64,000 nt of DNA from Sedimentisphaerales bacterium (GTDB lineage Bacteria > Planctomycetota > Phycisphaerae > Sedimentisphaerales > Anaerobacaceae), in NCBI GenBank assembly GCA_049513025.1, contig JBEKWM010000002.1, forward strand, positions 123,280 through 187,279, in the 5' to 3' direction. Position 1 is the stretch's first letter; the number at the start of each line of letters is the position of its first letter. The notes under the pieces were generated by a model, which worked only from the letters and a program-made list of their open reading frames with translations, ran no database searches and was not told where the DNA came from. Shown here in pieces: positions 7,010-63,354 of this stretch. A program made the translations under genes and the position numbers.

Positions 7010-7205
7010 TGCATCACCTCTCATTTCTACGACGCATTTGCGAAACCGGGCCAACAATTCCGCCATAAGCGGACAAGTTTCGTATCGACGGGGCGATGGC
7101 GTCGCTTTTGCACGAATTGACTCTTTGCGTCGAAACCGTTGAAATCCGCCTGCGATTGCGAAAAAAATAGTATACGATTTGAGTATGGTCTGATAAGTTT
7201 CTGGT

Positions 7206-8255
7206 ATGAAGACCGAAGAACTGGATTATTGCCTGCCGGAAGAGTTGATTGCGCAGCAGCCGGCGAAAAACCGCAGCCAGTCCCGACTGCTGGTTTTAAA
7301 CAGACCAACCGGTCAACTAATCGACACCCGGTTCGCCAAAGTCGGGGAATTTCTGCGCAAGGGCGATTGCCTTGTCTTAAACGATACAAAGGTATTGGCT
7401 GCACGTTTCTTCGCGAAACGTCAGACGGGGGGCTCGCTCGAAGGGCTGTTTTTGAATCAACAGGATAAAGGCCTCTGGGAGGTAATGCTCAAAGGCCTCG
7501 GCAAAGTCAAAACGGGGGAACACATCTGGTTCAAGGATATCAAAGGCGACGATTTTTGTCGCGCGGAAGTAATTGAGAAAAAAAGCGACGGCAAGTGCCT
7601 TCTGAAAATCGAAGCCGAATTGCCGGCAGAAAAAACGCTTCAAAAAATTGGGTTTCCCCCCCTGCCGCCGTATATCAGGCGCGACACCGATTTGCGCCAG
7701 GCCGCGAAAGACAGGCAAAGATACCAGACGGTTTACGCCCGCAATTTGGGGGCAGTGGCCGCACCGACGGCCGGATTGCATTTCACCAAAAAGTTGATTG
7801 AGACGCTCGAAACGCGGGGCGTTGAATTCGCATACGTCACGCTGGCCGTGGGCGAGGGGACGTTCAAGCCCGTGACCGCCGAAACGCTCGAAGAACATCA
7901 GATACACGAGGAACGATTCAGCATCGACGAAAGAAACGTGGGCGTAATAAACAAAACCAGGGAAAAAGGCGGCAGGGTAATCGCCGTCGGAACAACCTCG
8001 GTCCGCGTTTTGGAAACCGCGACCGCACAGGGACAACTGTCGGCGATGACTGATTCAACGCGATTGTTTATCAAGCCGGGATACAAATTCAGAATGGTTG
8101 ACGGGATGGTAACAAATTTTCACCTTCCCAAATCAACGCTGCTCGCCCTTGTCGGCGCTTTCGCCGGGCTTGATACGATACTCGCCGCTTACCGATACGC
8201 TATTGAGAAGCGATACCGTTTTTACTCTTACGGCGACGCGATGCTAATAATTTGA
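7206..8255 (+). CDS. queA: S-adenosylmethionine:tRNA ribosyltransferase-isomerase
   Basis: 349 aa. N-terminus LDYCLPEELIAQQPAKNRSQSRLLVL, internal PPLPPYI and C-terminal RFYSYGDAML are characteristic QueA blocks. Confidence 0.95.
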   Translation: MKTEELDYCLPEELIAQQPAKNRSQSRLLVLNRPTGQLIDTRFAKVGEFLRKGDCLVLNDTKVLAARFFAKRQTGGSLEGLFLNQQDKGLWEVMLKGLGKVKTGEHIWFKDIKGDDFCRAEVIEKKSDGKCLLKIEAELPAEKTLQKIGFPPLPPYIRRDTDLRQAAKDRQRYQTVYARNLGAVAAPTAGLHFTKKLIETLETRGVEFAYVTLAVGEGTFKPVTAETLEEHQIHEERFSIDERNVGVINKTREKGGRVIAVGTTSVRVLETATAQGQLSAMTDSTRLFIKPGYKFRMVDGMVTNFHLPKSTLLALVGAFAGLDTILAAYRYAIEKRYRFYSYGDAMLII

Positions 8256-14379: not shown

Positions 14380-17300
14380 CTATCTATTTTCCAGTCGGGT
14401 GTCCAGAACATAAGACCTCAATATAAGGCCAGGAATACTGCTTCTCTTAGCTACTTCTTTCGCCTGCTCCTCAAAATGACTTTGAGCTTGTTCAATCATA
14501 TATTTGGGTGAATCCTGTTTTCTATAATCATTATATGCCCATTTATCGCAGACGAACCAACCCACCAAGTACATACCATGTGGGCATTGATTATCTTGTA
14601 GATATTTGCCAACAAGTTGAGTCTCCATCGCTATGTCTAATTCTTTATTCCAACATCCTTTCACCTCGATTATGGCTTTGATTATGTCGACGCTGCCTTT
14701 TGCTCTTGGATTGATAGCATCAATGTGAATATCTGTTTTCTGGCCACGACGGATTTGAACCTCCCTATTTACAATAATACCCCTACGCACGCTTAGGTCC
14801 TCGGCAATGTGTCTTGCGATATAATCGCAAAAATGCGGCTCATCTTTTGGGCAACACAAAGGTTTTTGGCTATTTCCTCGGTTATCCCAAAGATCATATA
14901 CCGCAGGCAATTCGTCATGAAGCTTCTTTTCTAACCGCTGGAGCGATTCAAATATCACATTAAGTAATTGCTCGCCGCTTTCAACGAAGGTCCGTTGATT
15001 GTCTTGTGCAAGAGAGATTATCTGCTCTGGAGAAAGGGGATTCCACGTCATAGCACGAGTATTCTTTTCAGCTTCCAAAATATGCCATTTCATCCAACCA
15101 AGATGGGGTAAAGCCTTTTCTATTCGTCGGATTTGCTCAAGGGATTGCTTTGTTCCACGCTCCTCTAAATGTCTTAAAAGTCCGTCTCTGAAGTCATCGA
15201 TACTCCTAACAGTATTGATTCCAGCTTTTTGGTATGGATATTGTTCTACCATCCAGAGATACATATCAGCCATTTGTTGTTCTGTAAGTTGCTCTGTGAA
15301 TAAAACTAAGTTGTCATGGCGATAATGTTCAACAGACCACTCTATTATTTCTTTGCCAAAAACCACATCGACTTGAATGGCAGGCCAGAGAACCGGCCAA
15401 GCTATATCGGGACAATTTCCAAATAATGATTCAGATATGATAATCGCTCGTTTTCGAGCTGCTTTATCTTGTGGAGGAGGCACAGGTATTACCGACTTAG
15501 CATATTCAACAACTGGCACAAACTCTTTTTTAATGAGGAAATTTAATAAATCACTAAAGGCTTCTATTTTCATATTTGCTGAAAGGATTTCTTCAAACAA
15601 GGCCTCGCCTAAGCGATGATCAAAAATATGTTGGATTCTCTCTATAATAAAAACATGACCGCTTTCATTGTTTTCCTTGCGAACAATCTTTATTAAAGCC
15701 TCGATTGTTTCTTTAGGTGCAGTTTTATAACAACTCGACATTATTGAATCGTGCGGTTCTTTTTCATAACCACTATTTAAAGGATAAGAAACAACTACTT
15801 GAGCCCATATCTTCCAAGAATCTGCTGACAAGTGCTCAACGAAATATGGATCAAATTTCATTAAAAGCGCCATAGCTCTATACCCGGCCATGTTAGGTCG
15901 ATAGTTGGTGTCGCCAAGCCAAGAGGCATCTATTGTAGGGGGATTCAATAGATATTTCTTTGCAGCACTTATGATTCTCTCTTTGATCTCCGTATCTGCT
16001 TCTTTCCATACTGGTAATGTTGTCAAATCATAATTGAATTCATCTTCGGGATGGTAGAGATTATCAGTTTTGAGTGTCATAATAAGATTGATCATCCACC
16101 AAGCATTAATGTCGCCTCTTTCAAATTTATTAAGAAGCGAAAGCACCCGTTTTTTGGGTGATGGCTTAAAGAATAAACGTATATTTCTTCTCTTTGGAAG
16201 TCGATGGAATTTCATGTACCAATAAAAATTCCTTACTCTGATGTTTAGTATATATATGGGCTTGAGAAGTTTTAAAGAATAACCAAATATCCTTCCGAGA
16301 AAAGGATATTTTCGACGAAATTTAAGCAAACGATCAAAGTTCCACGGAAAGGATGTTCGAGGAAAGTAACGTAGTAACCCACCCCAAAGTTCCGCTTCTT
16401 CTTGTGTTGCATTATTATACTGTTCGATCAGCCAATCTATATCCTGTTCTGTAACTAATGGAACCAATGTTACAATCAGATGTATGGCTATTTTTTGTTT
16501 GATAAATAATGGCGCAATTTCTTTTACTATTATTCGACGTTTTTGGGTATCTTTTGCTATCTCTTTATTAAAAGATTGCTCGTTGCCTGGAACAATTTGC
16601 TCGTAATTTCTTATTAGCTCAAATACTGCTCGAGTAAAAGGTTTCACAAGTGTCGGCATATCAAGTAAATATTTCCATGCAGCCGGTACGATGCGTTCTC
16701 GTATTCGTTCAGTATCTGAGTGATATCCCCATTTTTTGGGATTATCTGCAATCCAATCTAAAGCATAGGTAAGATCATCAGGTTTAAGATTCTTATCAAG
16801 TTCCTCAGATAATTTCCCAAGAAAAATGAAGTAAGAACCCAAAAAATCTTGTTTTTTGGGGGGAGTAAGAGCAATGAAAAGTTCCTTTGCTGTCATTAAA
16901 TCTGGCCAACATGCCAATAGAGCACAACCCTTTAATTCGTCCTCAGGGTCATCCCCTAACTCACCGAAAACAAGTGGCTTTAATTTGAGTTTGGATTCAG
17001 AATCACCCATATTCGTAATTGCATAACCAGATTTTTGACGTATAAATATTTTGTCATTCTGGTCGAGTGCAACTGCTACAAGATTCGGCAAAACCTCTTT
17101 AACATCACATTCCCAAGCAATTTCTATAGCAACTCGCCTTACTAAGAAACCCTTACTTTTATCGTCAATATATGGCCGAACTTGTTCTGCGAGAGATGGA
17201 TGTTTCAATTTGTGATAGTATCCACGCATGTCCCTGTCTATTAATCTTTCTTGTTCGAACATCATTAATAATTTTTCGACTAATCGTTTTCTATCTTCAA

Positions 17301-18591
17301 CATCAAATGATGAAACATCACTCCTGAGAAGAACTTCTGGATCATTTTCCAAAATGCTTGTCAGGATATTGTCATTATCATTTGCTACCCATGCCGCTGT
17401 TTCGTACAATTGAGGAATAAGTTTCCCTTGGTTATCAGAAGGATTGACTAACAAGCCCATGATTTGATTTTCACTCATCGAACTTACAGACAAATATCTC
17501 GCCGCAAGAAATTCCGCATAAGTTTGGTGCGCCCAGCCCATTCTATGAGGACCTAGCGATGTGAAAAGACCTGTCCGAAGTGTAGCCATGACCAAGTCAT
17601 TTGTTACTAATATATTCTCGCCGTTTACTTTTTCGCTGCCCCCCAATAGCTCACCAATCCTAACAGCTTCCTCTAAAACGTCGCCATTGTCGATGTCATT
17701 CCAGACAGCATATTTATTCCCAAAAATTGTAGCGGCGGCTATTCGACTAGCAGTATTCAGAAGTATGTCTGATTGATAATGGGATGTAATTCCAGTTTCT
17801 CGACGTCTTTCGTCTGGTTCTTCACACAATATATTACATCCCTTCTCGTATAATTCAGATTGTTTGGCCGGGAAAGTCCCTTCTGCTTTATAGACTTTAA
17901 CTAGCATATTGAGTGTTACCGGCTTGATAGCGAAGGGCTGGGCGTAATTTGATATGATTAAATCTATGAACTTATCGGGATTATTTACATCTTCAGATTG
18001 TGCCGCATTGCGGACATCTTTTTTTCTAAGCGGTGCTAATTTGTATACTTTGACTTTTTCTTTGTCATAAAGATGCCCTAAACCTTTCTCGAATGAATTG
18101 GGCCATTCTGCAGTCCTGCATGCGATTCTTAAAAATAATCTTTCTTTCAATTTCTGATATTTTGAAAACTCTTCTTCCAGCAACGAAGTTACAGTGTCCA
18201 GCCGAAGCAAACATTCATCAAGACTATCTAAAAACAAATGAAGGTAATGTGTGCCCTTGGTCCATCTTATAAACTTTTCGTCTTCAAATATTTTGGAATA
18301 AAGACGGGTTCCTTCACTAATTGACTTTAAATTAACAAAAAGACATTCATTTTTAAATTGAGTAACGCATTGATTATAAAAATTACTGATTTCAAAGGAT
18401 TTCCCAATCCCGGGTTCGCCAAGGAGAACCAGATACTGCTGTGTGTGAAGATTTTCTGTGGATATAAGGTTCGGATTTGAAAATTTACCGTAGTCATCAT
18501 CTGGGTCGGTAAGAAATCTATTATCACCCAACTGATATTCAGTCTCTCGTGGGCACCAGAATCGTTTCCAGTTGTAATCCTTTTCCGGCAT
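14380..18591 (-). CDS. STAND/NACHT-type P-loop NTPase with long helical region and C-terminal PD-(D/E)xK nuclease-like domain
   Basis: The ORF is open to a TTG at 18639; the first ATG is 18591. Walker A LLGEPGIGKS (nt 18397-18420). Walker B-like LHLFLDSLDE. About 1,000 aa predicted helical. C-terminus TDIHID...IIEVKG (nt 14659-14733) is a D...E-x-K motif. Visibly AT-rich compared with both flanks. Confidence 0.85.
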   Translation of the reverse strand: MPEKDYNWKRFWCPRETEYQLGDNRFLTDPDDDYGKFSNPNLISTENLHTQQYLVLLGEPGIGKSFEISNFYNQCVTQFKNECLFVNLKSISEGTRLYSKIFEDEKFIRWTKGTHYLHLFLDSLDECLLRLDTVTSLLEEEFSKYQKLKERLFLRIACRTAEWPNSFEKGLGHLYDKEKVKVYKLAPLRKKDVRNAAQSEDVNNPDKFIDLIISNYAQPFAIKPVTLNMLVKVYKAEGTFPAKQSELYEKGCNILCEEPDERRRETGITSHYQSDILLNTASRIAAATIFGNKYAVWNDIDNGDVLEEAVRIGELLGGSEKVNGENILVTNDLVMATLRTGLFTSLGPHRMGWAHQTYAEFLAARYLSVSSMSENQIMGLLVNPSDNQGKLIPQLYETAAWVANDNDNILTSILENDPEVLLRSDVSSFDVEDRKRLVEKLLMMFEQERLIDRDMRGYYHKLKHPSLAEQVRPYIDDKSKGFLVRRVAIEIAWECDVKEVLPNLVAVALDQNDKIFIRQKSGYAITNMGDSESKLKLKPLVFGELGDDPEDELKGCALLACWPDLMTAKELFIALTPPKKQDFLGSYFIFLGKLSEELDKNLKPDDLTYALDWIADNPKKWGYHSDTERIRERIVPAAWKYLLDMPTLVKPFTRAVFELIRNYEQIVPGNEQSFNKEIAKDTQKRRIIVKEIAPLFIKQKIAIHLIVTLVPLVTEQDIDWLIEQYNNATQEEAELWGGLLRYFPRTSFPWNFDRLLKFRRKYPFLGRIFGYSLKLLKPIYILNIRVRNFYWYMKFHRLPKRRNIRLFFKPSPKKRVLSLLNKFERGDINAWWMINLIMTLKTDNLYHPEDEFNYDLTTLPVWKEADTEIKERIISAAKKYLLNPPTIDASWLGDTNYRPNMAGYRAMALLMKFDPYFVEHLSADSWKIWAQVVVSYPLNSGYEKEPHDSIMSSCYKTAPKETIEALIKIVRKENNESGHVFIIERIQHIFDHRLGEALFEEILSANMKIEAFSDLLNFLIKKEFVPVVEYAKSVIPVPPPQDKAARKRAIIISESLFGNCPDIAWPVLWPAIQVDVVFGKEIIEWSVEHYRHDNLVLFTEQLTEQQMADMYLWMVEQYPYQKAGINTVRSIDDFRDGLLRHLEERGTKQSLEQIRRIEKALPHLGWMKWHILEAEKNTRAMTWNPLSPEQIISLAQDNQRTFVESGEQLLNVIFESLQRLEKKLHDELPAVYDLWDNRGNSQKPLCCPKDEPHFCDYIARHIAEDLSVRRGIIVNREVQIRRGQKTDIHIDAINPRAKGSVDIIKAIIEVKGCWNKELDIAMETQLVGKYLQDNQCPHGMYLVGWFVCDKWAYNDYRKQDSPKYMIEQAQSHFEEQAKEVAKRSSIPGLILRSYVLDTRLENR

Positions 18592-18657
18592 ACAATTATT
18601 AGTCCGCAATCTTCCAGCCTTGAGTTTCTGTAAAACCAATTTATCCGCCTGTGGTGG

Positions 18658-18927: not shown

Positions 18928-19011
18928 GCGGATGTGGCGGAACTGGCAGACGCGCAGGCTTCAGGAGCCTGTGGGCTCACGCTCGTGGAGGTTCGACTCC
19001 TCTCATCCGCA
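18928..19011 (+). tRNA. tRNA-Leu (anticodon CAG), type II with long variable arm, CCA not encoded
   Basis: Hand-folded. Acceptor GCGGATG/CATCCGC + discriminator A. D-stem GCG/CGC. Anticodon stem CAGGC/GCCTG with loop TTCAGGA. 16-nt variable arm. T-arm GGAGG-TTCGACT-CCTCT. Confidence 0.93.
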
Positions 19012-20934: not shown

Positions 20935-21270
20935 ATGAGCGAAGCGACAGTAGCGACTGAACAAAGGAAAAATACAAGAACACCGGTTGCCTGGCCGGTA
21001 AGCGTCTGGCTGCCGGAAGCAAACAGGTTCTTCAACGGCAGAAGCTCCAATATCAGCAGTGGCGGCGTGCTGGTGCGCATTCCGGCGACTACGCCTTTGC
21101 GAACCGGGCACGTTGTCGAGTTGAATTTCCCGCGCACAATGGCGCTGGCCAAGAGAAAAGGCAGCTTCGCGCGGATTAAGAGCGGACGAGTGGTGCGAAT
21201 CGAACGAGGCGAATTGCTTGACGACGGCTCAATAGGCATTGGCATCGTCTTTGAAAGTATCGAGTCGTAA
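20935..21270 (+). CDS. PilZ domain protein (c-di-GMP receptor type)
   Basis: GGAG RBS. QRKNTR (RxxxR) and NISSGG (D/NxSxxG) motifs at the correct spacing. Confidence 0.75.
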   Translation: MSEATVATEQRKNTRTPVAWPVSVWLPEANRFFNGRSSNISSGGVLVRIPATTPLRTGHVVELNFPRTMALAKRKGSFARIKSGRVVRIERGELLDDGSIGIGIVFESIES

Positions 21271-21347
21271 CCACGGATTGACACGGATTTACACGGATTA
21301 ACACTGTAAAAAAACAATTCTCTGTGTTTTCTGTGTAATCTGTGGTT
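21271..21347 (+). repeat. inverted pair of decamer-repeat arms (CACGGATT x3-4 / TCTGTG x3) forming an imperfect hairpin
   Basis: CACGG/CACTG start at 21272, 21282, 21292, 21302 (exact 10-nt period). CTGTG starts at 21322, 21331, 21340. The element begins 1 nt after the PilZ stop. Confidence 0.85.
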
Positions 21348-21721
21348 AAAAAGTTAATTCGAAATAAGAAGTGCCATGGGGCACTTTCTGACAGCACACG
21401 GGTTTGGGGAAAAGCTATTGGCCGGCGAAGAATTGGGAGACCGCCGGCCAGTTTTTTTTGCCCTTTTTTTAGACGCAGATTCCTTCGACTACTGCTCAGG
21501 ACAGGTAACGCAGATTTACGCTGTTTTTTTCAGACACGGATTAACACTGTTTTTGCTCGGCTTTGGTGTACTCAGCCAAGGGCGTTCTCAATACGAGTGT
21601 CTGCGACGCCCTTTTGCTTCGTCCACAGATGCGTTAGAAACGCCTCTTTCTTTTTAAGCCGAGAAAAACCACAGATTCACCCCGTGAGATAGGCGAAGCC
21701 GCCATCTAACGGGGGTTGGCA

Positions 21722-21865
21722 TTAACTTTCTTTCATCCGGCCGAGTTTGTAACCCAAATAGGCGACCACAGCTATGCCAATAATATGAACGACAAACCAT
21801 CCGCCGTGAAGAAATTGAAAGCTCTCGGGCAGGGCCACTAACAGCAGATTCGTATGCTCAACCAT
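21722..21865 (-). CDS. unannotated 47-aa hydrophobic micro-protein
   Basis: Below the ORF-track cutoff. ATG 21865 is preceded by AAGGAG at 8-nt spacing. Translation MVEHTNLLLVALPESFQFLHGGWFVVHIIGIAVVAYLGYKLGRMKES has one TM helix. Confidence 0.4.
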   Translation of the reverse strand: MVEHTNLLLVALPESFQFLHGGWFVVHIIGIAVVAYLGYKLGRMKES

Positions 21866-22175
21866 TGTTCTACTCCTTAACCTAATTCAGGATTAGTTTC
21901 GAACGCCTGTTTTTTTGAGACATGATGCCGGCTGCCATTGTCTCAAAGCCGACATAAGGCCGCAACTCTTTTCTGGTCATTCTGTGCCGTCTCTGCCTTT
22001 TTTATTAGCCACTCCCGTTCCCGGAAGGGACGCCTTTCGGCGAGATTTCACGGATTACACGGTTTTCTGCTGTTGTAAAAAGACAGGGGTTAGAGGATTG
22101 GGGGTTGTTTTATTGTTAATAGTCAGTAAGATAAATAGAAAGAAAAACAATAGCCATGGTATGGAGACCAGATAA

Positions 22176-22559
22176 ATGATTACAGATACTCATAAAACTG
22201 CGGCAAGGTCTCTCTTTGGAGAAGTTGCAGTAAATCGAACCGACATGCCTTTGTTTGTGAACAAGACAAAGTTTATAGAAGCAATTCGACTGTTCAAAGA
22301 GCAAGACAACCTTTCAAAACTTAGATATGCGGTATTGGATTTAGAAGGTAATCTACACAGTGTGAAAGACGACAAGATAGGCGTTCTAAACATACACAGC
22401 AATGGGGATACAATCAACTTTAGCCAGAGACACTTGCTTGACCAGCTTGACCAAATTGCTGATTCGCAGACATTGGAGCGTGCGAAGTACTATACTGAGC
22501 GTCTTGAAAAAGCCATGACGGAAATTCGAACTAATAACATCAATGTAGATTTGAACTGA
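22176..22559 (+). CDS. hypothetical protein (first gene of AT-rich block II)
   Basis: 127 aa. GGAG 9 nt upstream. No motif recognised. Confidence 0.55.
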   Translation: MITDTHKTAARSLFGEVAVNRTDMPLFVNKTKFIEAIRLFKEQDNLSKLRYAVLDLEGNLHSVKDDKIGVLNIHSNGDTINFSQRHLLDQLDQIADSQTLERAKYYTERLEKAMTEIRTNNINVDLN

Positions 22560-22632
22560 CCTAATGAATATTGATATTATTAAACGGAGAGGACAAGCAG
22601 TAATTAGTGAATGATCTCTGGGAATATGGAAT

Positions 22633-22953
22633 ATGGGAACAATAGAGGTTTCAAGTAAAGTACTCAGAAAGTGCCCAAGATGTAGTGCTCAGTTATATGA
22701 AGAAGTATATGAGGACGAAAAGACAATATATCTGGTGTGTGAAAAAAATGGGTGCGGGTATGAGAAGAAAATAAAATACAAGCACTTAAAATTCTCTTTC
22801 ACATACAGAGATGAATTTACAACAGACGTAGTGGCAAAAAATATTGAAGAAGCAATGAAAAAGATAGAAAGTGTGGATTGGAAGAGGACAGATTGTGATT
22901 TGTGGGAAGACTATCTTGATGTAGAATACTCACCTGTGGTAAAGTTGACTTAA
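22633..22953 (+). CDS. hypothetical zinc-ribbon protein
   Basis: 106 aa. CPRC...(18 aa)...CEKNGC four-Cys ribbon near the N-terminus. Confidence 0.55.
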   Translation: MGTIEVSSKVLRKCPRCSAQLYEEVYEDEKTIYLVCEKNGCGYEKKIKYKHLKFSFTYRDEFTTDVVAKNIEEAMKKIESVDWKRTDCDLWEDYLDVEYSPVVKLT

Positions 22954-22980
22954 TAGGGTATTATAAAGGTAGAGTAGTCA

Positions 22981-23160
22981 ATGGCGAAGTATATGATTAG
23001 AATTATCGCAGAGGTGGATTCATCTTTATCCAAGACAGATTTGGAATCACGATTGGTAGCGTCGCTATTTGATGTAGAATCTGAAGAAAAACTTAGTGAT
23101 GGGGACAATAACCATTTTTGTATAGTGGATTATGATTTGACAGAGGCGATACCAATATGA
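22981..23160 (+). CDS. unannotated 59-aa acidic protein, translationally coupled to the downstream nuclease
   Basis: Just below the 60-aa ORF-track cutoff. Translation MAKYMIRIIAEVDSSLSKTDLESRLVASLFDVESEEKLSDGDNNHFCIVDYDLTEAIPI. Its TGA (23158-23160) overlaps ATG 23157 (ATGA). Confidence 0.45.
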   Translation: MAKYMIRIIAEVDSSLSKTDLESRLVASLFDVESEEKLSDGDNNHFCIVDYDLTEAIPI

Positions 23161-24194
23161 AGGCGCATGTACTTATAACCAGCGCCGAAACTTTTCCTGT
23201 ATGCAGAGACAGGCTCTTTTGGGGCATCGGGACTCCCGATTGCCCGCTTAGTTTCGAAGAATGGGCGGACCCAGCCAATTCTAGAAAACCATACCTTAAA
23301 ATGCTCGTTGATATGACGAGTGTTAGCATTGGTGACCTGATATTTCTATACGAGAGGCAGGCAGGGTTCCACGGTGTCTATAAAGTAGTAAGTCCTTTAT
23401 TTTTTGACACCGAAAATGTGACTAACAAGGACAATCTTTCTGTAGGAAGTCAGTGGCCCCTTCGAATGAAACTGGAAAATGTATATTACTTTCCAAAACC
23501 GGTTCCCGAAGATTTGTTGTTCTCGACCCCACGTTATGAAAATATCTTTTGGATATGGGCTTACAGAAAAAGTCAGGGGCCTCGTGGTTGTAACACGATA
23601 ACTCCTGAAGCAACAGAGGCTTTAATAGAGTTGCTTGTAAAAATTAACGGCACTGATAGCAAATACGATGATTTTGATGGTTACACACCACCCGAATTTA
23701 AATCCGTCACGCTACAATTAGCTAAAAACGGAGAAAGGGTCGCCCTCGAAGATATTCTCAGAGGATATATCTTGGCGCATTTGGAGACAGGGGAAGGGTT
23801 GGAAGATATTTTCGGCCCCAAAGAAGATATTGAATGGTACGCTAACAACGTTCCGTACCATATAACTCAGAAGAACATTGACATTCTTGTCTTTCATAAA
23901 AACTTCCGATACACTTCCGTTCCTCTACGTTATAAATATTCCGTTGCTGAATTGAAAAAGGACGAGGCATCACCCAAAGATATCAGCCAACTTTTAAGGT
24001 ATTCCTTATGGGTAAGTGGGCGACTTGCCGATGGTGAAGCGGAGATGATTCAACCTATTCTAATAGCGCACGATTTTTCTGACGAAACTATTAAGAAAGC
24101 AAAAGCCTCTGATTTCAACGATAGAGGCATAGTGCTAGTCAAATACAAAGCCGTGAGTGAAGAAAGAATCATTTTTGAGGTTCTCGGAAAGTAA
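23157..24194 (+). CDS. PUA/EVE-like N-terminal domain fused to NucS/Shedu-like PD-(D/E)xK endonuclease domain
   Basis: 345 aa. The N-terminus (LFWGIG...SIGDLIFLYERQAGFHGVYKVVSP) resembles EVE/PUA-like barrels. The C-terminus has ALEDIL(E198)...NIDILVF(D242)...VAELKKD(E265-x-K267)...QLLRY(Q278/Y282), the nuclease-core pattern. Confidence 0.6.
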   Translation: MKAHVLITSAETFPVCRDRLFWGIGTPDCPLSFEEWADPANSRKPYLKMLVDMTSVSIGDLIFLYERQAGFHGVYKVVSPLFFDTENVTNKDNLSVGSQWPLRMKLENVYYFPKPVPEDLLFSTPRYENIFWIWAYRKSQGPRGCNTITPEATEALIELLVKINGTDSKYDDFDGYTPPEFKSVTLQLAKNGERVALEDILRGYILAHLETGEGLEDIFGPKEDIEWYANNVPYHITQKNIDILVFHKNFRYTSVPLRYKYSVAELKKDEASPKDISQLLRYSLWVSGRLADGEAEMIQPILIAHDFSDETIKKAKASDFNDRGIVLVKYKAVSEERIIFEVLGK

Positions 24195-24242
24195 GTATTT
24201 AGGATTTGAAGCAACCAAAGTGACAAGCTAAGACGTGTGGAA

Positions 24243-24548
24243 ATGGCGGGATTGGACGAACTAACTGCATATACAAAATTGAAGAGAGGAATCTGTCTGC
24301 GTGTCTTGGGTGCTATTCAGAAAGAATGTGGGGAGATCGGGAACGAGCAGATTGAAGATGATTATATTTCTTTCGAGGTTTATAGCGATTACTTCGAGGA
24401 TGCACCAAGAGCAATAAGAAATGGCCGATTTACGTTGAAACTGGTCGATAAATTCGACGATCCATTTTTTACGCTAATATATAGAATACAAATTCATAGG
24501 AAGGGGGTAGGGAGGCGGAGGTCGATGACAGAGGGATTGAAGACTTGA
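24243..24548 (+). CDS. hypothetical protein
   Basis: The ORF is open from GTG 24237; the first ATG is 24243. About 101 aa. No motif recognised. Confidence 0.45.
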   Translation: MAGLDELTAYTKLKRGICLRVLGAIQKECGEIGNEQIEDDYISFEVYSDYFEDAPRAIRNGRFTLKLVDKFDDPFFTLIYRIQIHRKGVGRRRSMTEGLKT

Positions 24549-24564
24549 AGATAGTGGAGTTGTA

Positions 24565-25407
24565 ATGGAAACGACAAAAATAGCAGTATTCAAAGGCAGA
24601 GAGGTCAGAAAGACCATACATAACAACGAATGGTGGTTTTCGATAACGGATATTATCGAAGCTCTGACGGGAAATGAAAGATCGAGGAAATACTGGAATG
24701 ACCTGAAAAATAAGCTCATAAAAGAGGGCTATTCTGAAGTGTCCGAAAAAATCGGACAGTTGAAATTACAGGCTCCAGACGGGAAACAACGTCTCACCGA
24801 TTGCGCAAATACAGAAACGCTGTTCAGGATAATTCAGACGATTCCATCGCCGAAGGCCGAACCCTTCAAGCGCTGGCTTGCGAAGGTGGGTTATGAACGT
24901 GTCCAGGAAATTGAAGACCCCGAACTTGGAACAAAAAGGACCCGCGCTTTGTACAAGGCCAAGGGGTATCCTGATGGCTGGATAGAGAAGCGTATGCGAG
25001 GAATCGCGATACGCGAGGAATTGACGGACGAATGGAAAGAACGGGGCGTAAAAGAAGAACCGGAATACGCCATCCTAACCGCGGAAATCTCGAAGGCGAC
25101 GTTCGGAGTAACGCCTTCACAATATAAACGGCTTAAAGGATTGAAACGTGAAAATCTGCGGGACCATATGAACGACCTCGAACTGATATTCAATATGTTG
25201 GGCGAGGCGGCAACGACGGAGATTGCAAGGGAAAAGGACGCACGCGGTTTCATAGAAAACAAAGTTGCTGCGAATAAAGGCGGCCAGATAGCGGGAAAAG
25301 CGAGAAAGGAACTTGAATCGCAGACCGGAAAGCGAGTCGTATCCCGTAAGAATTATCTGGAGGGACCTCCGGATAGAAAAGCATTGCCGGAGAAGAACAG
25401 ACGATGA
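24565..25407 (+). CDS. BRO-N domain / DinD-like (DNA-damage-inducible protein D family) protein
   Basis: N-terminus IAVFKGREVRKTIHNNEWWFSITDIIEALTG is BRO-N-like. The C-terminal half (LRDHMNDLELIFNMLGEAATTEI...GKARKELESQTG) parallels the E. coli DinD C-terminus. Confidence 0.75.
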   Translation: METTKIAVFKGREVRKTIHNNEWWFSITDIIEALTGNERSRKYWNDLKNKLIKEGYSEVSEKIGQLKLQAPDGKQRLTDCANTETLFRIIQTIPSPKAEPFKRWLAKVGYERVQEIEDPELGTKRTRALYKAKGYPDGWIEKRMRGIAIREELTDEWKERGVKEEPEYAILTAEISKATFGVTPSQYKRLKGLKRENLRDHMNDLELIFNMLGEAATTEIAREKDARGFIENKVAANKGGQIAGKARKELESQTGKRVVSRKNYLEGPPDRKALPEKNRR

Positions 25408-25538
25408 GCCGAACAACAATAGACCATTTAATAATTAACTCGCCTTTCGACAAGCTCAGGACAGACAGTTAGCAGCAGTTTCCAGCCCAGCTTAGAAAAC
25501 GAATCTTACAGCATTACAATAATATTGAAGCAATTACA

Positions 25539-25883
25539 TTGCGAGAAATGATACCTAACGAACTTGAAGCAGATCACAGATTTCCACAAGTCAGGTGGTC
25601 AAAAAACGAAACGTTTGATCCTGATATGTCTGATAGTCAACTTCACAACAAATTTCAACTGTTGACGCGCCAACACAATCTTTGGAAAAGTCGTTATTGT
25701 GAACATTGCGCGAAAACAGGAGAACGCGGCACGTTTATCGGTATTAATTTCTTTGCTACTGGTGGTCCAAAGTGGGATCCGCAATATCCGACGAACGACG
25801 AGCGGGGATGCTATGGTTGTTTCTGGTATGACCCAGATGTTTGGCGTCGAGCGATAAACAATGTTGTGGAAAAGCATGAATGA
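25539..25883 (+). CDS. HNH-motif endonuclease-like protein, probably an N-terminally truncated remnant
   Basis: The frame is open from 25473, with only a TTG (25539) or an internal ATG as start. ELEADHRFP...QHNLWKSRYCEHC resembles a DH...N...CxxC beta-beta-alpha-metal core. No methyltransferase is adjacent. Confidence 0.4.
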   Translation: MREMIPNELEADHRFPQVRWSKNETFDPDMSDSQLHNKFQLLTRQHNLWKSRYCEHCAKTGERGTFIGINFFATGGPKWDPQYPTNDERGCYGCFWYDPDVWRRAINNVVEKHE

Positions 25884-26080
25884 TGAATACGATTGAATAA
25901 CCGTATAATTACCTTCGGTGGGTAAACCCCGCCCTAGAACTGGATTCTCGCTTCCTTCGACTGGTTCGACGATGCTCACCACAGGCAATCTCAGGACGGA
26001 GTAGTTGCTTCAGGGAAGTTGAGCCGGGCAAACTCGCCGTGGTATAGTCCCGTCGTTCGTCGCGCGTCGCTCGTATTTCG

Positions 26081-26677
26081 TCATTTGGAATGAGACTGAG
26101 CGATTTCCGGAAAATTGAGGCGTGCAAATTCCTTATGATACATTCTTGCTGCGACATCATAGGCGCGGGCGGCGGCGATTTCGTTATCGAAGGAGCCGAG
26201 CCAGATGGATTTGCCGTTAACCTTGATTTGCGAACACCAATACCGATGCGATTTATTAAAAAAAGAACCGATAAACTGTGAGGAAGTATTTGCTTTCTTC
26301 TTCCTGTTGTGCAAATTCTGAGCCTGTGTAGCAAGGCGGAGGTTTGCCCTGCGATTATCGAGTGAATCGCCATTTATATGATCAACGACAAGGCCCTTAG
26401 GGCAATCCATAATTAACCTGTGCAAACGGACAGTAGTCGTTCGGGAAGCATCGGCCCTGACGTTGCGAACAGCATAGAATTTGTTGTCGTTTCCGCTGAT
26501 TTCCCATTTGAAGCAGCCAAAGCGGTAGTAATCCTGCTGGTCGAGAATGGTCCAGGCGTCCTCGCTGAGGTAAATCCTGCGGAAGGTGTAGCCATAGCGG
26601 AGAAGGCGAAAGACGAGCAGTGGAAAGGTGAAAAAACGGTCCAGCCAATTCGGAATACTTATGTGAATAATTGTCAT
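26081..26677 (-). CDS. HNH endonuclease + AP2 DNA-binding domain protein (homing-endonuclease-like)
   Basis: VVDHINGDSLDNRRANLRLAT (HNH_3-type) followed by YWCSQIKVNGKSIWLGSFDNEIAAARAYDVAARMYHKEFARLNFPE (AP2/ERF-type). Confidence 0.8.
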   Translation of the reverse strand: MTIIHISIPNWLDRFFTFPLLVFRLLRYGYTFRRIYLSEDAWTILDQQDYYRFGCFKWEISGNDNKFYAVRNVRADASRTTTVRLHRLIMDCPKGLVVDHINGDSLDNRRANLRLATQAQNLHNRKKKANTSSQFIGSFFNKSHRYWCSQIKVNGKSIWLGSFDNEIAAARAYDVAARMYHKEFARLNFPEIAQSHSK

Positions 26678-26695
26678 TTTCTTGCCCCCTTTTTT

Positions 26696-26720
26696 TAGCC
26701 ACAGATTACACAGATTTATT
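26696..26720 (+). repeat. solo repeat arm TAGCCACAGATTACACAGATTTATT
   Basis: Same TTTAGCCACAGA-type head as at 27087, 38871, 38885 and 61476. Followed by hairpin AGCCCCGC...GCGGGGCT (26729-26766). Confidence 0.8.
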
Positions 26721-27086
26721 TGATGCTCAGCCCCGCACTTGTCTTCGACAAGGAAACGCGGGGCTAAGGCCCAATTCGAGGAACATCGTTCCTCTATAAT
26801 TGGGCCGACTTGCGCGCTTTTGACGAAAAAACCGATTTTCGAGGAGGGCTAAAATGCACTTAAGTCGTTGTGGGATAAGGAGTAAAAAAAAATTTAAAAA
26901 TTCCCGGATTGGCCAAAAAACACATGCGCGAAAATGGATAACAGTTGTATCATACAACTGTTTGATACAGTTGTTTTATACGACTTTTTTAGTCCTGTTT
27001 TATGTCCTTATCCTGCAAGAGGTTACAGCTAAAGACCTGCGTTAAAAACGCGCAAAAAACAGGCCCAAAATGGGCAAAAAAAGAGG

Positions 27087-27122
27087 TTTAGCCACAGATT
27101 CCACAGATGGACACGGATTTAT
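27087..27122 (+). repeat. repeat arm TTTAGCCACAGATTCCACAGATGGACACGGATTTAT
   Basis: CACAG/CACGG units start at 27093, 27102 and 27112. Confidence 0.8.
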
Positions 27123-27249
27123 AACTACTTAAGAATAATGGGATTACGTTATTTTTCGCTACAAAGAAAAGAGGGGACATCCTGTCTTGTTTTCAGCGGA
27201 CGAAGATATTTTAATCGCGGAATAGCCATTCCCGTTTATAATCTCGATT

Positions 27250-61524: not shown

Positions 61525-62040
61525 CTAAGCGCTGATCTTGTAACCAACTTTCATGGCGTTTATTACTATTTGAGCACAGGCCAACGCATCCGATAAGGCC
61601 TCATGATGGTTTAGCTCAATTCCCAGATGGTCGCACACATTATTGAGCTTGGCTGGATCCAATTTCCAGCAAGATCTGGCGATATTAACCGTACATACAA
61701 ATTTCTGCGCCGGAGGTTTAATCTTATATTTTTCACAGCACTCATATAAAACAGACCTGTCAAACGGGGCGTTATGTGCCGCGATAAAATCCGCACCATC
61801 CAGCAACGGGCTTAATTCTTCCCATACCTCATCAAACAGAGGAGCATCTTTGACATCTTCTGCCGTAATGTGATGTACGTTCTCTGTGAAATCGTCTAAG
61901 AAATAGGTTTGAGGATTGATGAGGCTGTATTCCTTGGCAACAATTTCATTATTGACAACCTTAACTAATCCTATCGCACAGGCCGAATCTCTGTCATTAT
62001 TAGCCGTCTCAAAATCTATCGCTACAAAATTACATCCCAT
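61525..62040 (-). CDS. DEDDh 3'-5' exonuclease (DnaQ/epsilon-like)
   Basis: AIDFETAN (Exo I), AHNAPFDRSVL (Exo II) and HHEALSDALACA (Exo III, H-type). Confidence 0.85.
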   Translation of the reverse strand: MGCNFVAIDFETANNDRDSACAIGLVKVVNNEIVAKEYSLINPQTYFLDDFTENVHHITAEDVKDAPLFDEVWEELSPLLDGADFIAAHNAPFDRSVLYECCEKYKIKPPAQKFVCTVNIARSCWKLDPAKLNNVCDHLGIELNHHEALSDALACAQIVINAMKVGYKISA

Positions 62041-62055
62041 AGAAATTCCTGAATT

Positions 62056-63354
62056 TTACGATGCTTCATTAGAATTGCTTTTGACAGCCTTATTCCATTC
62101 TGCCGTGACGAATTTAATATATCCGAGTAAACCGTCTGCCGCTTTATTGACTTCCAAGTCTATTTGCGACTTGTCAGTAATTACTTTTTCAAACCACTCA
62201 TTGCCAGGGGAAAACATGATTGTCCTTCCAATTGGCCACCAAGGATTATTTGGTGTATCAATCACATCAAACGTAGAGTCTTTATCTAATGCATTACGAA
62301 CACGATCAAACTCACTATTGTACTGTTTAAAGTAATCATCTTTTCTTGAATTATCATACTTAATTAATGAAATACCATACCAACACCTCTGGTCTTGATC
62401 CTTTTGTACAAAGAAATTAAATATCTTGTCCAAATCGAGCGAAGAAGTTAAGAAAAACCCTACATATGTTTTCTCATTTATTTCTTTGCTATCGATATCA
62501 ATACCTCTATTTTTGAGTTTCAGTTTTAGAGAAATCCAGAACGAATCCAAAAAGTATTTTTTGAGATTTTCAACACTTTGGTTGATCTCACTCGCATATT
62601 CAAACAGCTCAGGATATTTCTTTATAAGATCTTCCATTTCCTTCATATTTGTCTCCGCCAAAGTATTCTTACCTACCAGTTCAGCAACAACATCTTTGTA
62701 TTGCTGTATCGCAGTGTTAATATTGGGATATTTATAGGTTTTTTCTAAACAGCGATCCAGCCATCTTAAAATATGCTCTGAATATGATATGCAGTAATAT
62801 TCACCCTTGTATTCGCCTGCGGTCTCGGGTTCCTTACCATCAAGCGTAAGGTATATTAAGGCCTTATTATGCTTCCCACAGTCGTTGAGATATTCAACAT
62901 ATCTGGAAATTTGATCGCTTTGTTCACCAGCGTATATTTTGTTTTCAATAATTAATATTGAGTCTTGGAAAACCACGCCAATGTCAATACGGCCATAATC
63001 TTTTCCAAGTGGTGTCTCCCGCAAAATATTCTTAAATGTATCGCCGAGGCACTTGTCAAGAAAGTTGCTGCCATCCGGTTCGCCGAGGTTTTTATCAATG
63101 CCCTGTTCTTTAAGTACTTCAAGAAACAGGTTAAGGAAAAGGTTGCCGCAATCATGCGAACCTTTAGCATTTAACAACAATGCAAGAAATCTTGAATGGA
63201 GTCCGACTTCTTCATGCGCTTTGCGCAAAGTAGTAAAGACATTAAATCTTGCCTTGGTAGCCCTGATGAAAGTATCTCGGCGAACTTTTATCTCGCCCAA
63301 TTCCCGTATTAACTTAGGAATAGCTTTTGAAAGTATCTCAAATTCAGTAACCAT
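62056..63354 (-). CDS. PD-(D/E)xK nuclease family protein (PDDEXK_4-like)
   Basis: N-terminus FNVFTTLRKAHEEVGLHSRFLALLLNAKGSH. Core GRIDIGVVF...ILIIENKIYAGEQSDQISRY (D...E-x-K). Long helical C-terminal half. Confidence 0.7.
   Translation of the reverse strand: MVTEFEILSKAIPKLIRELGEIKVRRDTFIRATKARFNVFTTLRKAHEEVGLHSRFLALLLNAKGSHDCGNLFLNLFLEVLKEQGIDKNLGEPDGSNFLDKCLGDTFKNILRETPLGKDYGRIDIGVVFQDSILIIENKIYAGEQSDQISRYVEYLNDCGKHNKALIYLTLDGKEPETAGEYKGEYYCISYSEHILRWLDRCLEKTYKYPNINTAIQQYKDVVAELVGKNTLAETNMKEMEDLIKKYPELFEYASEINQSVENLKKYFLDSFWISLKLKLKNRGIDIDSKEINEKTYVGFFLTSSLDLDKIFNFFVQKDQDQRCWYGISLIKYDNSRKDDYFKQYNSEFDRVRNALDKDSTFDVIDTPNNPWWPIGRTIMFSPGNEWFEKVITDKSQIDLEVNKAADGLLGYIKFVTAEWNKAVKSNSNEAS

Follow-up and report, generated by a model that had tools for sequence, protein, structure and literature searches.

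We analyzed a 64,000-nucleotide (nt) stretch from the genome of a Sedimentisphaerales bacterium (assembly GCA_049513025.1, contig JBEKWM010000002.1, positions 123,280 to 187,279; hereafter the window), which carries a gene cluster built around D345, a protein of 345 amino acids (aa) that joins a predicted reader of modified bases to a predicted nuclease. A sequence-only reading of the window had proposed that six co-directional, AT-rich genes at 22176–25407 form one modification-sensing defense module around this protein. The six open reading frames (ORFs)—A127, B106, C59, D345, E103, and F280—were confirmed, all on the + strand and at the coordinates first given, with gaps in order of 73, 27, −4 (an ATGA overlap), 42, and 16 nt. 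Across 22–25 kb the GC content falls to 0.38–0.43, versus 0.49–0.51 at 19–22 kb and 27–28 kb. The unit extends further than proposed, reaching position 25883 and taking in a seventh gene, G114. At its 5′ side, blastn homology to three related loci (L033, L034, and L067) begins at 22104, 72 nt before the start of A127, and the conserved segment 22104..22175 (+) presumably holds the promoter and ribosome-binding site. A scan for promoters and terminators returned as many matches as shuffled sequence and was uninformative.

D345 (23157–24194, +) consists of an EVE domain (residues ~1–165), a linker, and a NucS/EndoMS-like PD-(D/E)xK domain (~195–345). Sequence libraries gave weak signals for both: Pfam EVE matched at 0.0043 (17.5 bits, under the cutoff of 23, which distant relatives exceed), NCBIfam PRK00809 (UPF0310) at 1.2e-5, and NucS at 0.027, with distant relatives matching NucS_C weakly. 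The folds were settled by structure prediction and fold search. An AlphaFold2 model built on an alignment of the family was confident (mean pLDDT 83.7, pTM 0.78), and Foldseek comparison of its N-terminal half with the PDB returned PH1033 and MJECL36 (3.8e-8) together with further EVE structures, VcaM4I (an EVE-HNH restriction enzyme), THYN1 with 5-methylcytosine (5mC) DNA, and YTH domains; a profile of the D345 family also matched MJECL36 (4.4e-6). The C-terminal half matched EndoMS/NucS (5gke and 2vld, probability 1.00), followed by MspJI, FokI, and PaqCI. Designed armadillo repeats, the top PDB matches when D345 was searched as a single sequence, were set aside as spurious; they trace to a repeat-like match of 28 residues. 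Across 35 aligned sequences, W22, G23, the FLYERQ.GFHG block, E198, D242, E265, K267, Q278, and Y282 are invariant, and the N-terminal domain is rich in aromatics. The N-terminal half is therefore modeled as an EVE (PUA-superfamily) reader fold and the C-terminal half as a NucS/EndoMS-like PD-(D/E)xK fold with its catalytic residues intact, bearing out both the PUA/EVE-like barrel and the nuclease residues (E198, D242, E265-x-K267, Q278…Y282) that had been picked out from the letters.

The same reading had classed the nuclease as NucS/Shedu-type, and only the first half of that label holds: no Pfam DUF4263 or PADLOC Shedu match to D345 was found at E up to 1. Shedu (SduA) follows a similar general design, a variable N-terminal sensor joined to a PD-(D/E)xK nuclease, but the best structural matches of D345 are NucS/EndoMS instead. 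Nor does D345 belong to NucS proper. Its C-terminal domain has the same fold and motif set (E…D…ExK…QxxxY), whereas its N-terminus is an EVE domain in place of the NucS dimerization and single-stranded DNA-binding domain, and the NCBIfam NucS equivalog scores 13.5 bits versus a cutoff of 216, covering residues 261–314 only. NucS/EndoMS is, moreover, a core repair gene, whereas D345 is patchily distributed and sits on AT-rich islands.

The close D345 family comprises at least 295 proteins of ~343 aa, all annotated as hypothetical, with neither a name nor a precomputed Pfam domain; an exhaustive profile search extended the wider family to 370 clusters at 50% identity, 178 of them at E ≤1e-10. 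Pairwise NG86 estimates of dN/dS for D345 were 0.055–0.085; dS was near or above 1 for many pairs, so that these values and those given below are rough. D345 had no match among 50,697 phage records and two distant ones among plasmids, one of them a lone gene on a haloarchaeal megaplasmid. Given these searches, and with F280 the sole phage-related gene, we rejected a phage origin for D345. For D345, the suggestion of decayed-phage cargo finds no support in the same phage search or in the dN/dS of all components, which is well below 1.

We next considered the company that D345 keeps. Related loci numbered 112 (32 from genomes and 80 from metagenomes; 99 non-redundant) and came from Planctomycetota, Chloroflexota, WOR-3, Cloacimonadota, Omnitrophota, Sumerlaeota, Ignavibacteria, and other groups. 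Within the window's clade, defined by D345 at least 63% identical and represented by 24 informative loci, C59 co-occurred with D345 in 19, A127 in 14, G114 in 11, E103 in 8, B106 in 5, and F280 in 1, the window alone. The arrangement of D345 with C59, A127, E103, and B106 exceeds chance, as these genes are found together in independent contigs from several phyla. F280 does not recur with them, and co-occurrence this uneven does not fit six genes acting as one module; an interval ending at 25407 also leaves out G114, despite its presence in 11 of the 24 loci. The proposal of an undescribed multi-gene variant survives in changed form, with D345 and a small acidic partner inside the remnants of a restriction-modification (R-M) operon.

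C59 (22981–23160, +) is a very acidic protein of 59 aa (pI ~4.1; median among relatives 4.07). Its stop codon and the D345 start share ATGA, an overlap that suggests translational coupling of the two genes. It is the most constant partner of D345 in the window's clade, lying directly upstream or downstream, with dN/dS ~0.08–0.14 at informative divergence; it matched no family in Pfam, PADLOC, NCBIfam, or PHROG. Across all clades, a small acidic ORF abuts D345 in 45 of 72 informative loci (c2 in 24, C59 in 23, c10 in 3). We rejected homology among c2, C59, c10, E103, and B106, which are unrelated families by hhalign (probabilities ≤19%). At locus L002, the order is riboflavin synthase, c2, D345, C59, pdxA. 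Because this cassette sits between housekeeping genes and an R-M remnant is absent, D345 plus a small partner appears self-sufficient; the L002 cassette and the lone haloarchaeal plasmid copy both place D345 outside any R-M shell.

Such pairing raises the prospect of a toxin-antitoxin or abortive system, in which a toxic D345 would be held inactive by acidic C59 (c2 or c10 elsewhere) until infection or loss of the locus freed it, the EVE domain sensing a nucleic-acid cue rather than directing classical restriction. The abutting acidic ORF, often with a 4-nt overlap, and the occurrence of three unrelated small-protein families at one position, like swappable antitoxins, fit this scheme, as does the presence of C59 beside a different nuclease at L114. 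EVE domains are, in addition, found in toxin-antitoxin contexts (PMC7641849). On the other hand, 27 of the 72 loci have no such partner, C59 may stand on either side of D345, and an antitoxin-like DNA-binding domain was not detected. We regard this explanation as improbable; it is compatible with a type IV-like role for D345 and does not exclude it.

The genes on either side of the C59–D345 pair point to a different kind of system. A127 (22176–22559, +; 127 aa), previously listed as unknown, is a stand-alone N-terminal domain of a type II N4/N6 DNA methyltransferase. It matches PADLOC MTase_II PDLC03351 (9.3e-11, model positions 3–93 of 348) and aligns with the N-termini of full-length methyltransferases at loci L009 and L117. 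The L009 enzyme matches Pfam N6_N4_Mtase (3.8e-19) and the same PADLOC model (2e-121), and both full-length relatives carry FVGSGTT/FAGCGTT and HPPY, whereas A127 stops before motif I (FxGxG) and motif IV (xPPY) and is not itself a methyltransferase by this measure. HPPY occupies motif IV in all of the intact methyltransferases (L009, L005, L085, and L117), versus the usual D/N/S-PPY. The AlphaFold2 model of A127 (pLDDT 71) shows two beta-alpha-alpha units making a predicted four-helix bundle, for which a fold search of the PDB returned generic four-helix bundles only (e.g., BRIL; E ≥0.2); we could identify it neither as a helix-turn-helix (HTH) regulator nor as a known target-recognition domain, the fold search being uninformative.

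G114 (25473..25883, +) is a truncated HNH restriction endonuclease of the IceA/NlaIII family, matching PADLOC REase_II PDLC03537 (1e-26, model positions 127–238 of 244) and Pfam ICEA (2e-4). Its ORF runs from TTG 25539 or ATG 25548 to 25883; the segment 25473–25538 consists of 22 in-frame codons of the lost N-terminal region (QQFPAQLRKRILQHYNNIEAITLRE), situated behind a stop codon and lacking a start codon. G114 keeps the HNH core and its invariant residues (D12-H13…N47, CxxC), and the N-terminal ~85–115 residues are gone. Relatives of 176–200 aa carry an extra N-terminal C..C..H region, and against these G114 falls short of a full-length enzyme. The short form occurs in 13 loci, with dN/dS 0.06–0.12. 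A protein identical to G114 is annotated in a metagenome-assembled genome of Sedimentisphaerales, which places the window in Planctomycetota, class Phycisphaerae. PADLOC, which the sequence-only reading had named as a check, recognized A127 (MTase_II), G114 (REase_II), and F280 (PDC-S13), and did not recognize a Shedu nuclease.

Two chimeric arrangements involve this gene. In L116, a 180-aa ORF (402–944, P0170) matches G114 over its first 58 residues and the NucS-like nuclease domain of the D345/D2 family over the rest. In L033–L036, the D345 stop is followed, in the same frame and with no further stops, by a restriction enzyme remnant and G114 (…FENVSI*RAFGQHELRKRVLQHYNNIEAITLREMIPNELEVDH); readthrough at this junction would give an EVE-NucS-HNH fusion, which may be coincidence.

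An intact parent operon is present at L117, where a 333-aa methyltransferase with an A127-type N-domain is followed after 14 nt by an IceA/NlaIII-like enzyme and D345 is absent. By blastn, the window shares three segments with its nearest relatives: 22104–22545 for the beginning of the former methyltransferase, 23020–24151 for C59 and D345, and 25489–25861 for the terminal part of the former restriction enzyme. G114 and its 176–200-aa relatives fall in the HNH family of the IceA1/HpyI (NlaIII-family) R-M systems, and in the intact form the methyltransferase is likewise adjacent; the window enzyme, however, is without its N-terminal 85–115 residues and the window methyltransferase without motifs I and IV, and the likeness drawn here is one of family.

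Methyltransferases are habitual neighbors of D345. Among the 99 non-redundant loci, the gene upstream of D345 is an intact methyltransferase in 9, a 3′-truncated one in 44 with 5 more probable, absent in 21, and unassigned in 20. At least 53 of 79 informative loci (at least 67%) thus have a methyltransferase or piece of one immediately 5′ of D345, and the catalytic domain is missing in 44 of the 53 loci that have any such piece. Truncation end points vary (~88–93, 127, 132–140, 175, 203, and 239 aa), and the ends of the short forms fall within a few codons of one another, with differing tails. An intact methyltransferase precedes an intact D345 at L005, L009, L070, L085, L090, L094, L095, L097, and L078 (the last on a partial contig), and at L085 a tight methyltransferase-c2-D345-c5 operon has overlapping stop and start codons.

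This neighborhood would suit an ordinary methylation-blocked type II restriction enzyme with its protecting methyltransferase upstream, the window copy being a decaying remnant, and tight operons such as that of L085 and the strong MTase_II match of the L009 enzyme are what such an account would lead one to expect. We consider it very improbable. D345 is intact and constrained where the catalytic half of the methyltransferase is gone, a situation in which a classical enzyme would kill its host; a restriction enzyme, either IceA/NlaIII-like or c5, is already present in the parent operon; the N-terminal domain of D345 has the fold of a modified-base reader; and D345 also stands alone between housekeeping genes.

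The truncated genes do not behave as debris. For A127, dN/dS was 0.086 against L001, which shares its truncation point, and 0.19–0.31 against others. In another clade, truncated methyltransferase pieces gave a median of 0.063 (33 pairs) versus 0.097 for intact ones, with no relaxation. Values for all components lie at ~0.06–0.3 and, because none approaches 1, the methyltransferase and restriction enzyme stumps appear to be maintained as proteins. With low dN/dS and intact reading frames, we rejected a pseudogene reading of A127 and G114.

In Streptococcus pneumoniae, the single DpnI/DpnII locus holds either a methylase and a methyl-sensitive enzyme or a methyl-dependent enzyme. D345 loci likewise show either an intact methyltransferase-restriction enzyme operon (L117) or D345 versions without methylase activity. 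Unlike the pneumococcal case, D345 loci have the methyl reader within the former operon, whose own genes persist in part as conserved pieces. One could imagine that a methyl-reader nuclease came into the operon, that the methylase lost its catalytic half, and that the methylase N-domain and the HNH core were then recruited, and kept by selection, as subunits of a new sequence-aware, methylation-dependent enzyme that attacks the old R-M mark, a reversal of the DpnII-to-DpnI type. In the putative complex, A127 would be the target-recognition-like N-domain, D345 the methyl reader and nuclease, and G114 an HNH core without a recognition domain of its own. Purifying selection has acted on A127 (versus L001) and on G114 (across loci) since truncations that other loci share, the truncated methyltransferase pieces elsewhere show no relaxation, truncation ends cluster at a domain boundary while the tails differ, G114 keeps every invariant HNH residue, A127, C59, D345, and G114 co-occur in the clade, and the methyltransferase catalytic domain is gone from 44 of 53 loci. 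We nonetheless think it unlikely, for 21 loci, L002 included, have D345 but no piece of either the methyltransferase or the restriction enzyme, and nine have it beside an intact methyltransferase; the downstream nuclease varies by clade (c5, D2, or G114); and the predicted fold of A127 is an uninformative helical bundle rather than a recognized DNA-binding fold. Were it true, the locus would be a natural example of R-M genes turned into their own opposite, and the catalytically dead half-methyltransferases of dozens of loci would gain a function.

What lies downstream of D345 is also eroded. Three nucleases alternate at this position, and the one present often lacks its 5′ end: c5, a 195-aa protein without a family match; D2, a D345 paralogue with a different N-domain; or, in the window's clade, G114. 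These deletions bear on a selfish origin, in which a nuclease cassette of small ORF plus D345 would colonize the methyltransferase/restriction enzyme junction, entering by insertion or by copying after D345-induced breaks, and erode both neighbors, with any defense incidental. The deletions are always proximal to the cassette, taking the 3′ part of the methyltransferase and the 5′ part of the nuclease that follows (c5 or the restriction enzyme), and have many end points, the operon at L117 is empty, the family is spread over many phyla, and a homing-type HNH_3 gene is repeatedly found close by. However, neither terminal repeats nor target duplications were found, the unit has no recombinase, the variable junctions argue against site-specific homing, and purifying selection on the stumps is unlike what erosion would leave. 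We hold this explanation to be quite improbable.

On balance, we favor, with moderate confidence, the reading that D345 is a modification-dependent nuclease of the type IV-like kind, housed in what is left of a type II R-M operon (a methyltransferase followed by an IceA/NlaIII-type enzyme). The modification-sensing defense role first proposed for the locus remains the best reading. By analogy, the EVE pocket of D345 would capture a flipped modified base in incoming DNA, and the NucS-like PD-(D/E)xK domain, probably as a dimer, would then cut the DNA nearby. With the catalytic domain of its methyltransferase lost, the locus appears no longer able to methylate host DNA, which fits the requirement of a methyl-directed nuclease, and the loss would remove a potential self-target of D345. 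C59 would be a stoichiometric bound partner, most likely an inhibitor or regulator that restrains the nuclease, and A127, B106, E103, and G114 may serve as accessory or exapted subunits. F280 would be a later insertion that acts independently.

Several points weigh against this reading. The main difficulty is posed by the nine loci in which an intact D345 directly follows a methyltransferase that also appears intact; at these loci the methyltransferase's mark must therefore differ from the D345 ligand, or D345 must be restrained. To our knowledge, the archaeal EVE/UPF0310 proteins that are its closest structural matches have no established ligand, and RNA is also bound by EVE and YTH domains. 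A127 is without an informative structural match, and the dN/dS estimates are rough, with dS near or above 1 in many pairs. Finally, in the published screen of Lutz et al. (PMC6765204), fewer than 6% of PUA-nuclease ORFs lay near DNA methyltransferases; the D345 family breaks this avoidance rule, and its logic may therefore differ from that of ordinary type IV enzymes.

Fusions of EVE with PD(D/E)XK nucleases are listed in the literature among predicted type IV enzymes (PMC7641849; the predicted class of Bell, Wolf, and Koonin 2020), and the core call for D345 is therefore not new. EVE-HNH enzymes are proven nucleases dependent on 5mC or 5-hydroxymethylcytosine (PMC7897488, PMC6765204). D345 shares with their VcaM4I/TspA15I group an N-terminal EVE reader, a candidate flipped-base pocket, and a C-terminal nuclease, and VcaM4I is among its Foldseek matches; like other EVE-nucleases, it is a single polypeptide able to stand alone. 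It differs from them in that its nuclease is NucS/EndoMS-like rather than HNH, and in its usual coupling to a small acidic ORF. Published PUA-nucleases, moreover, rarely lie near DNA methyltransferases, whereas the usual setting of D345 is a type II R-M operon, whole or in remnants. END-Mag, which experiments have shown to restrict hypermodified phages (PMC12191111), is likewise a modular combination of a modified-base sensor with a NucS-like PD-DExK nuclease. Its sensor is an inactivated EndoIII/Ogg domain (iEndoIII), that of D345 an EVE domain, and the comparison covers the nuclease fold class.

What the present analysis adds is, first, a sizeable unannotated family of EVE plus NucS-like proteins, with ~300 close members and 370 clusters at 50% identity. 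Second, the habitual place of these proteins is behind a type II methyltransferase and ahead of its nuclease, contrary to the avoidance of methyltransferases published for PUA-nucleases. Third, what remains of the truncated methyltransferase and restriction enzyme shows conservation, not decay. If these stumps are functional, the locus offers a tractable case of defense systems rebuilt from each other's parts, and also of how methyl-directed restriction conflicts with the methyl-blocked kind; otherwise, D345 is still a clean candidate modification-dependent enzyme that would be useful for mapping DNA modifications.

The individual slots of the locus show exchange of parts. L114 keeps the frame A127-B106-C59-[X]-restriction enzyme and carries a different nuclease (precomputed Pfam NmeDI_C) in the D345 slot, which shows modular exchange. 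A HARE-HTH label for the N-terminus of this nuclease and for the c23 fragments is not claimed, as Pfam gave no match at E ≤0.01. Among the downstream nucleases, c5 (L003, L004, and L008 versus L085) has a PD..D.K-like motif and is full-length in some loci with a truncated methyltransferase; c5 may therefore be no classical methyl-blocked restriction enzyme. D2 is a single ORF in L009 (9038–9715), and elsewhere its N-domain (D2N) or E103 overlaps the nuclease ORF by 40–65 nt in a different frame. Such split forms (L084 2276–3299; L067 7081–8242) could be frameshifted pseudogenes, split genes, or cases of programmed frameshifting.

E103 (24237–24548, +) encodes 103 aa from GTG, or 101 aa from ATG 24243, and matched no family in the libraries. 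It lies 3′ of D345 in 8 of the 24 clade loci by tblastn, with dN/dS 0.11–0.12. Elsewhere it stands directly upstream of, and overlaps, the nuclease ORF of a D345 paralogue (D2C); on the ORF map of L067, E103 (7081–7362) overlaps a 314-aa NucS_C-like ORF (7298–8242). B106 (22633–22953, +; 106 aa) combines a zinc ribbon, CPRC…C..GC (CxxC…CxxC), with an uncharacterized C-terminal part and drew weak zinc-ribbon matches only (Pfam, PHROG). Present also in L114 and with dN/dS 0.26–0.34, it is an occasional member of the locus.

F280 (24565–25407, +; 280 aa), between E103 and G114, is a BRO-N domain protein. The earlier label BRO-N/DinD-like holds for its first part, since Pfam Bro-N matches at 3.2e-13 (50.6 bits versus a cutoff of 25.6), and was rejected for its second, the DinD equivalog scoring 22 bits versus a cutoff of 242. 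Over its full length, F280 matches the PADLOC single-gene candidate PDC-S13 (1.5e-120) and phrog_15286 (5e-92). It was absent from all 112 fetched D345 loci. In L045 and L054, E103 and G114 are neighbors with no F280 between them, which indicates that F280 and a 22-codon stump were inserted between the two; the F280/G114 junction is common to the window and to L116, at a different genomic site. F280 is a separate, later insertion, independent of the conserved unit. The stump is a 22-codon ORF read from the sequence, MSRTTIDHLIINSPFDKLRTDS (25405..25470, +), which overlaps the F280 stop and is probably the 5′ end of another restriction/helicase-type gene carried in with F280; presumably it resembles the N-termini of type III Res/helicase-like proteins.

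The island as a whole can be delimited by comparison with L116, a locus from a related genome. The PilZ and Peptidase_M90 genes, which flank the island at a distance of 6 kb from each other, are separated in L116 by 96 nt. Homology to L116 ends at 21255 and resumes at 27232, and the ~6 kb at 21256–27231 are an insertion relative to that genome. Neither the window island nor the L002 cassette is flanked by direct or inverted repeats of note, and on this ground we rejected transposon-like mobility for both. The left part of the insert, 21256–22103, has normal GC (~0.49) and no convincing gene. To the right of G114 and convergent with the operon lies H198 (26081..26677, −), a homing-endonuclease-like gene with HNH_3 (Pfam, 5.6e-11) and AP2 (1.3e-6) domains and a match to phrog_99 (7e-39). 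Homologues stand beside D345 islands in L036 (42% identity) and L113 (8108–8734, 56%), and H198 is a recurrent neighbor outside the core.

Two further AT-rich stretches of the window carry defense-like genes. At 14380–18639 (−), where GC is 0.36–0.41, a 1,419-aa ORF has an N-terminal P-loop (GEPGIGKS), weak nSTAND3/AAA_22 matches, and a C-terminal D…E.K-like motif; it has the appearance of an Avs/NLR-type STAND defense gene, had no PADLOC match, and lies beside a tRNA-Leu(CAG) at 18928–19011. A third patch, at 61525–63354 (−; GC 0.35–0.38), encodes an RNase_T-type exonuclease (171 aa, 3e-24) adjoining a PDDEXK_4 nuclease (432 aa, 1.7e-30), which together may form a small defense locus.

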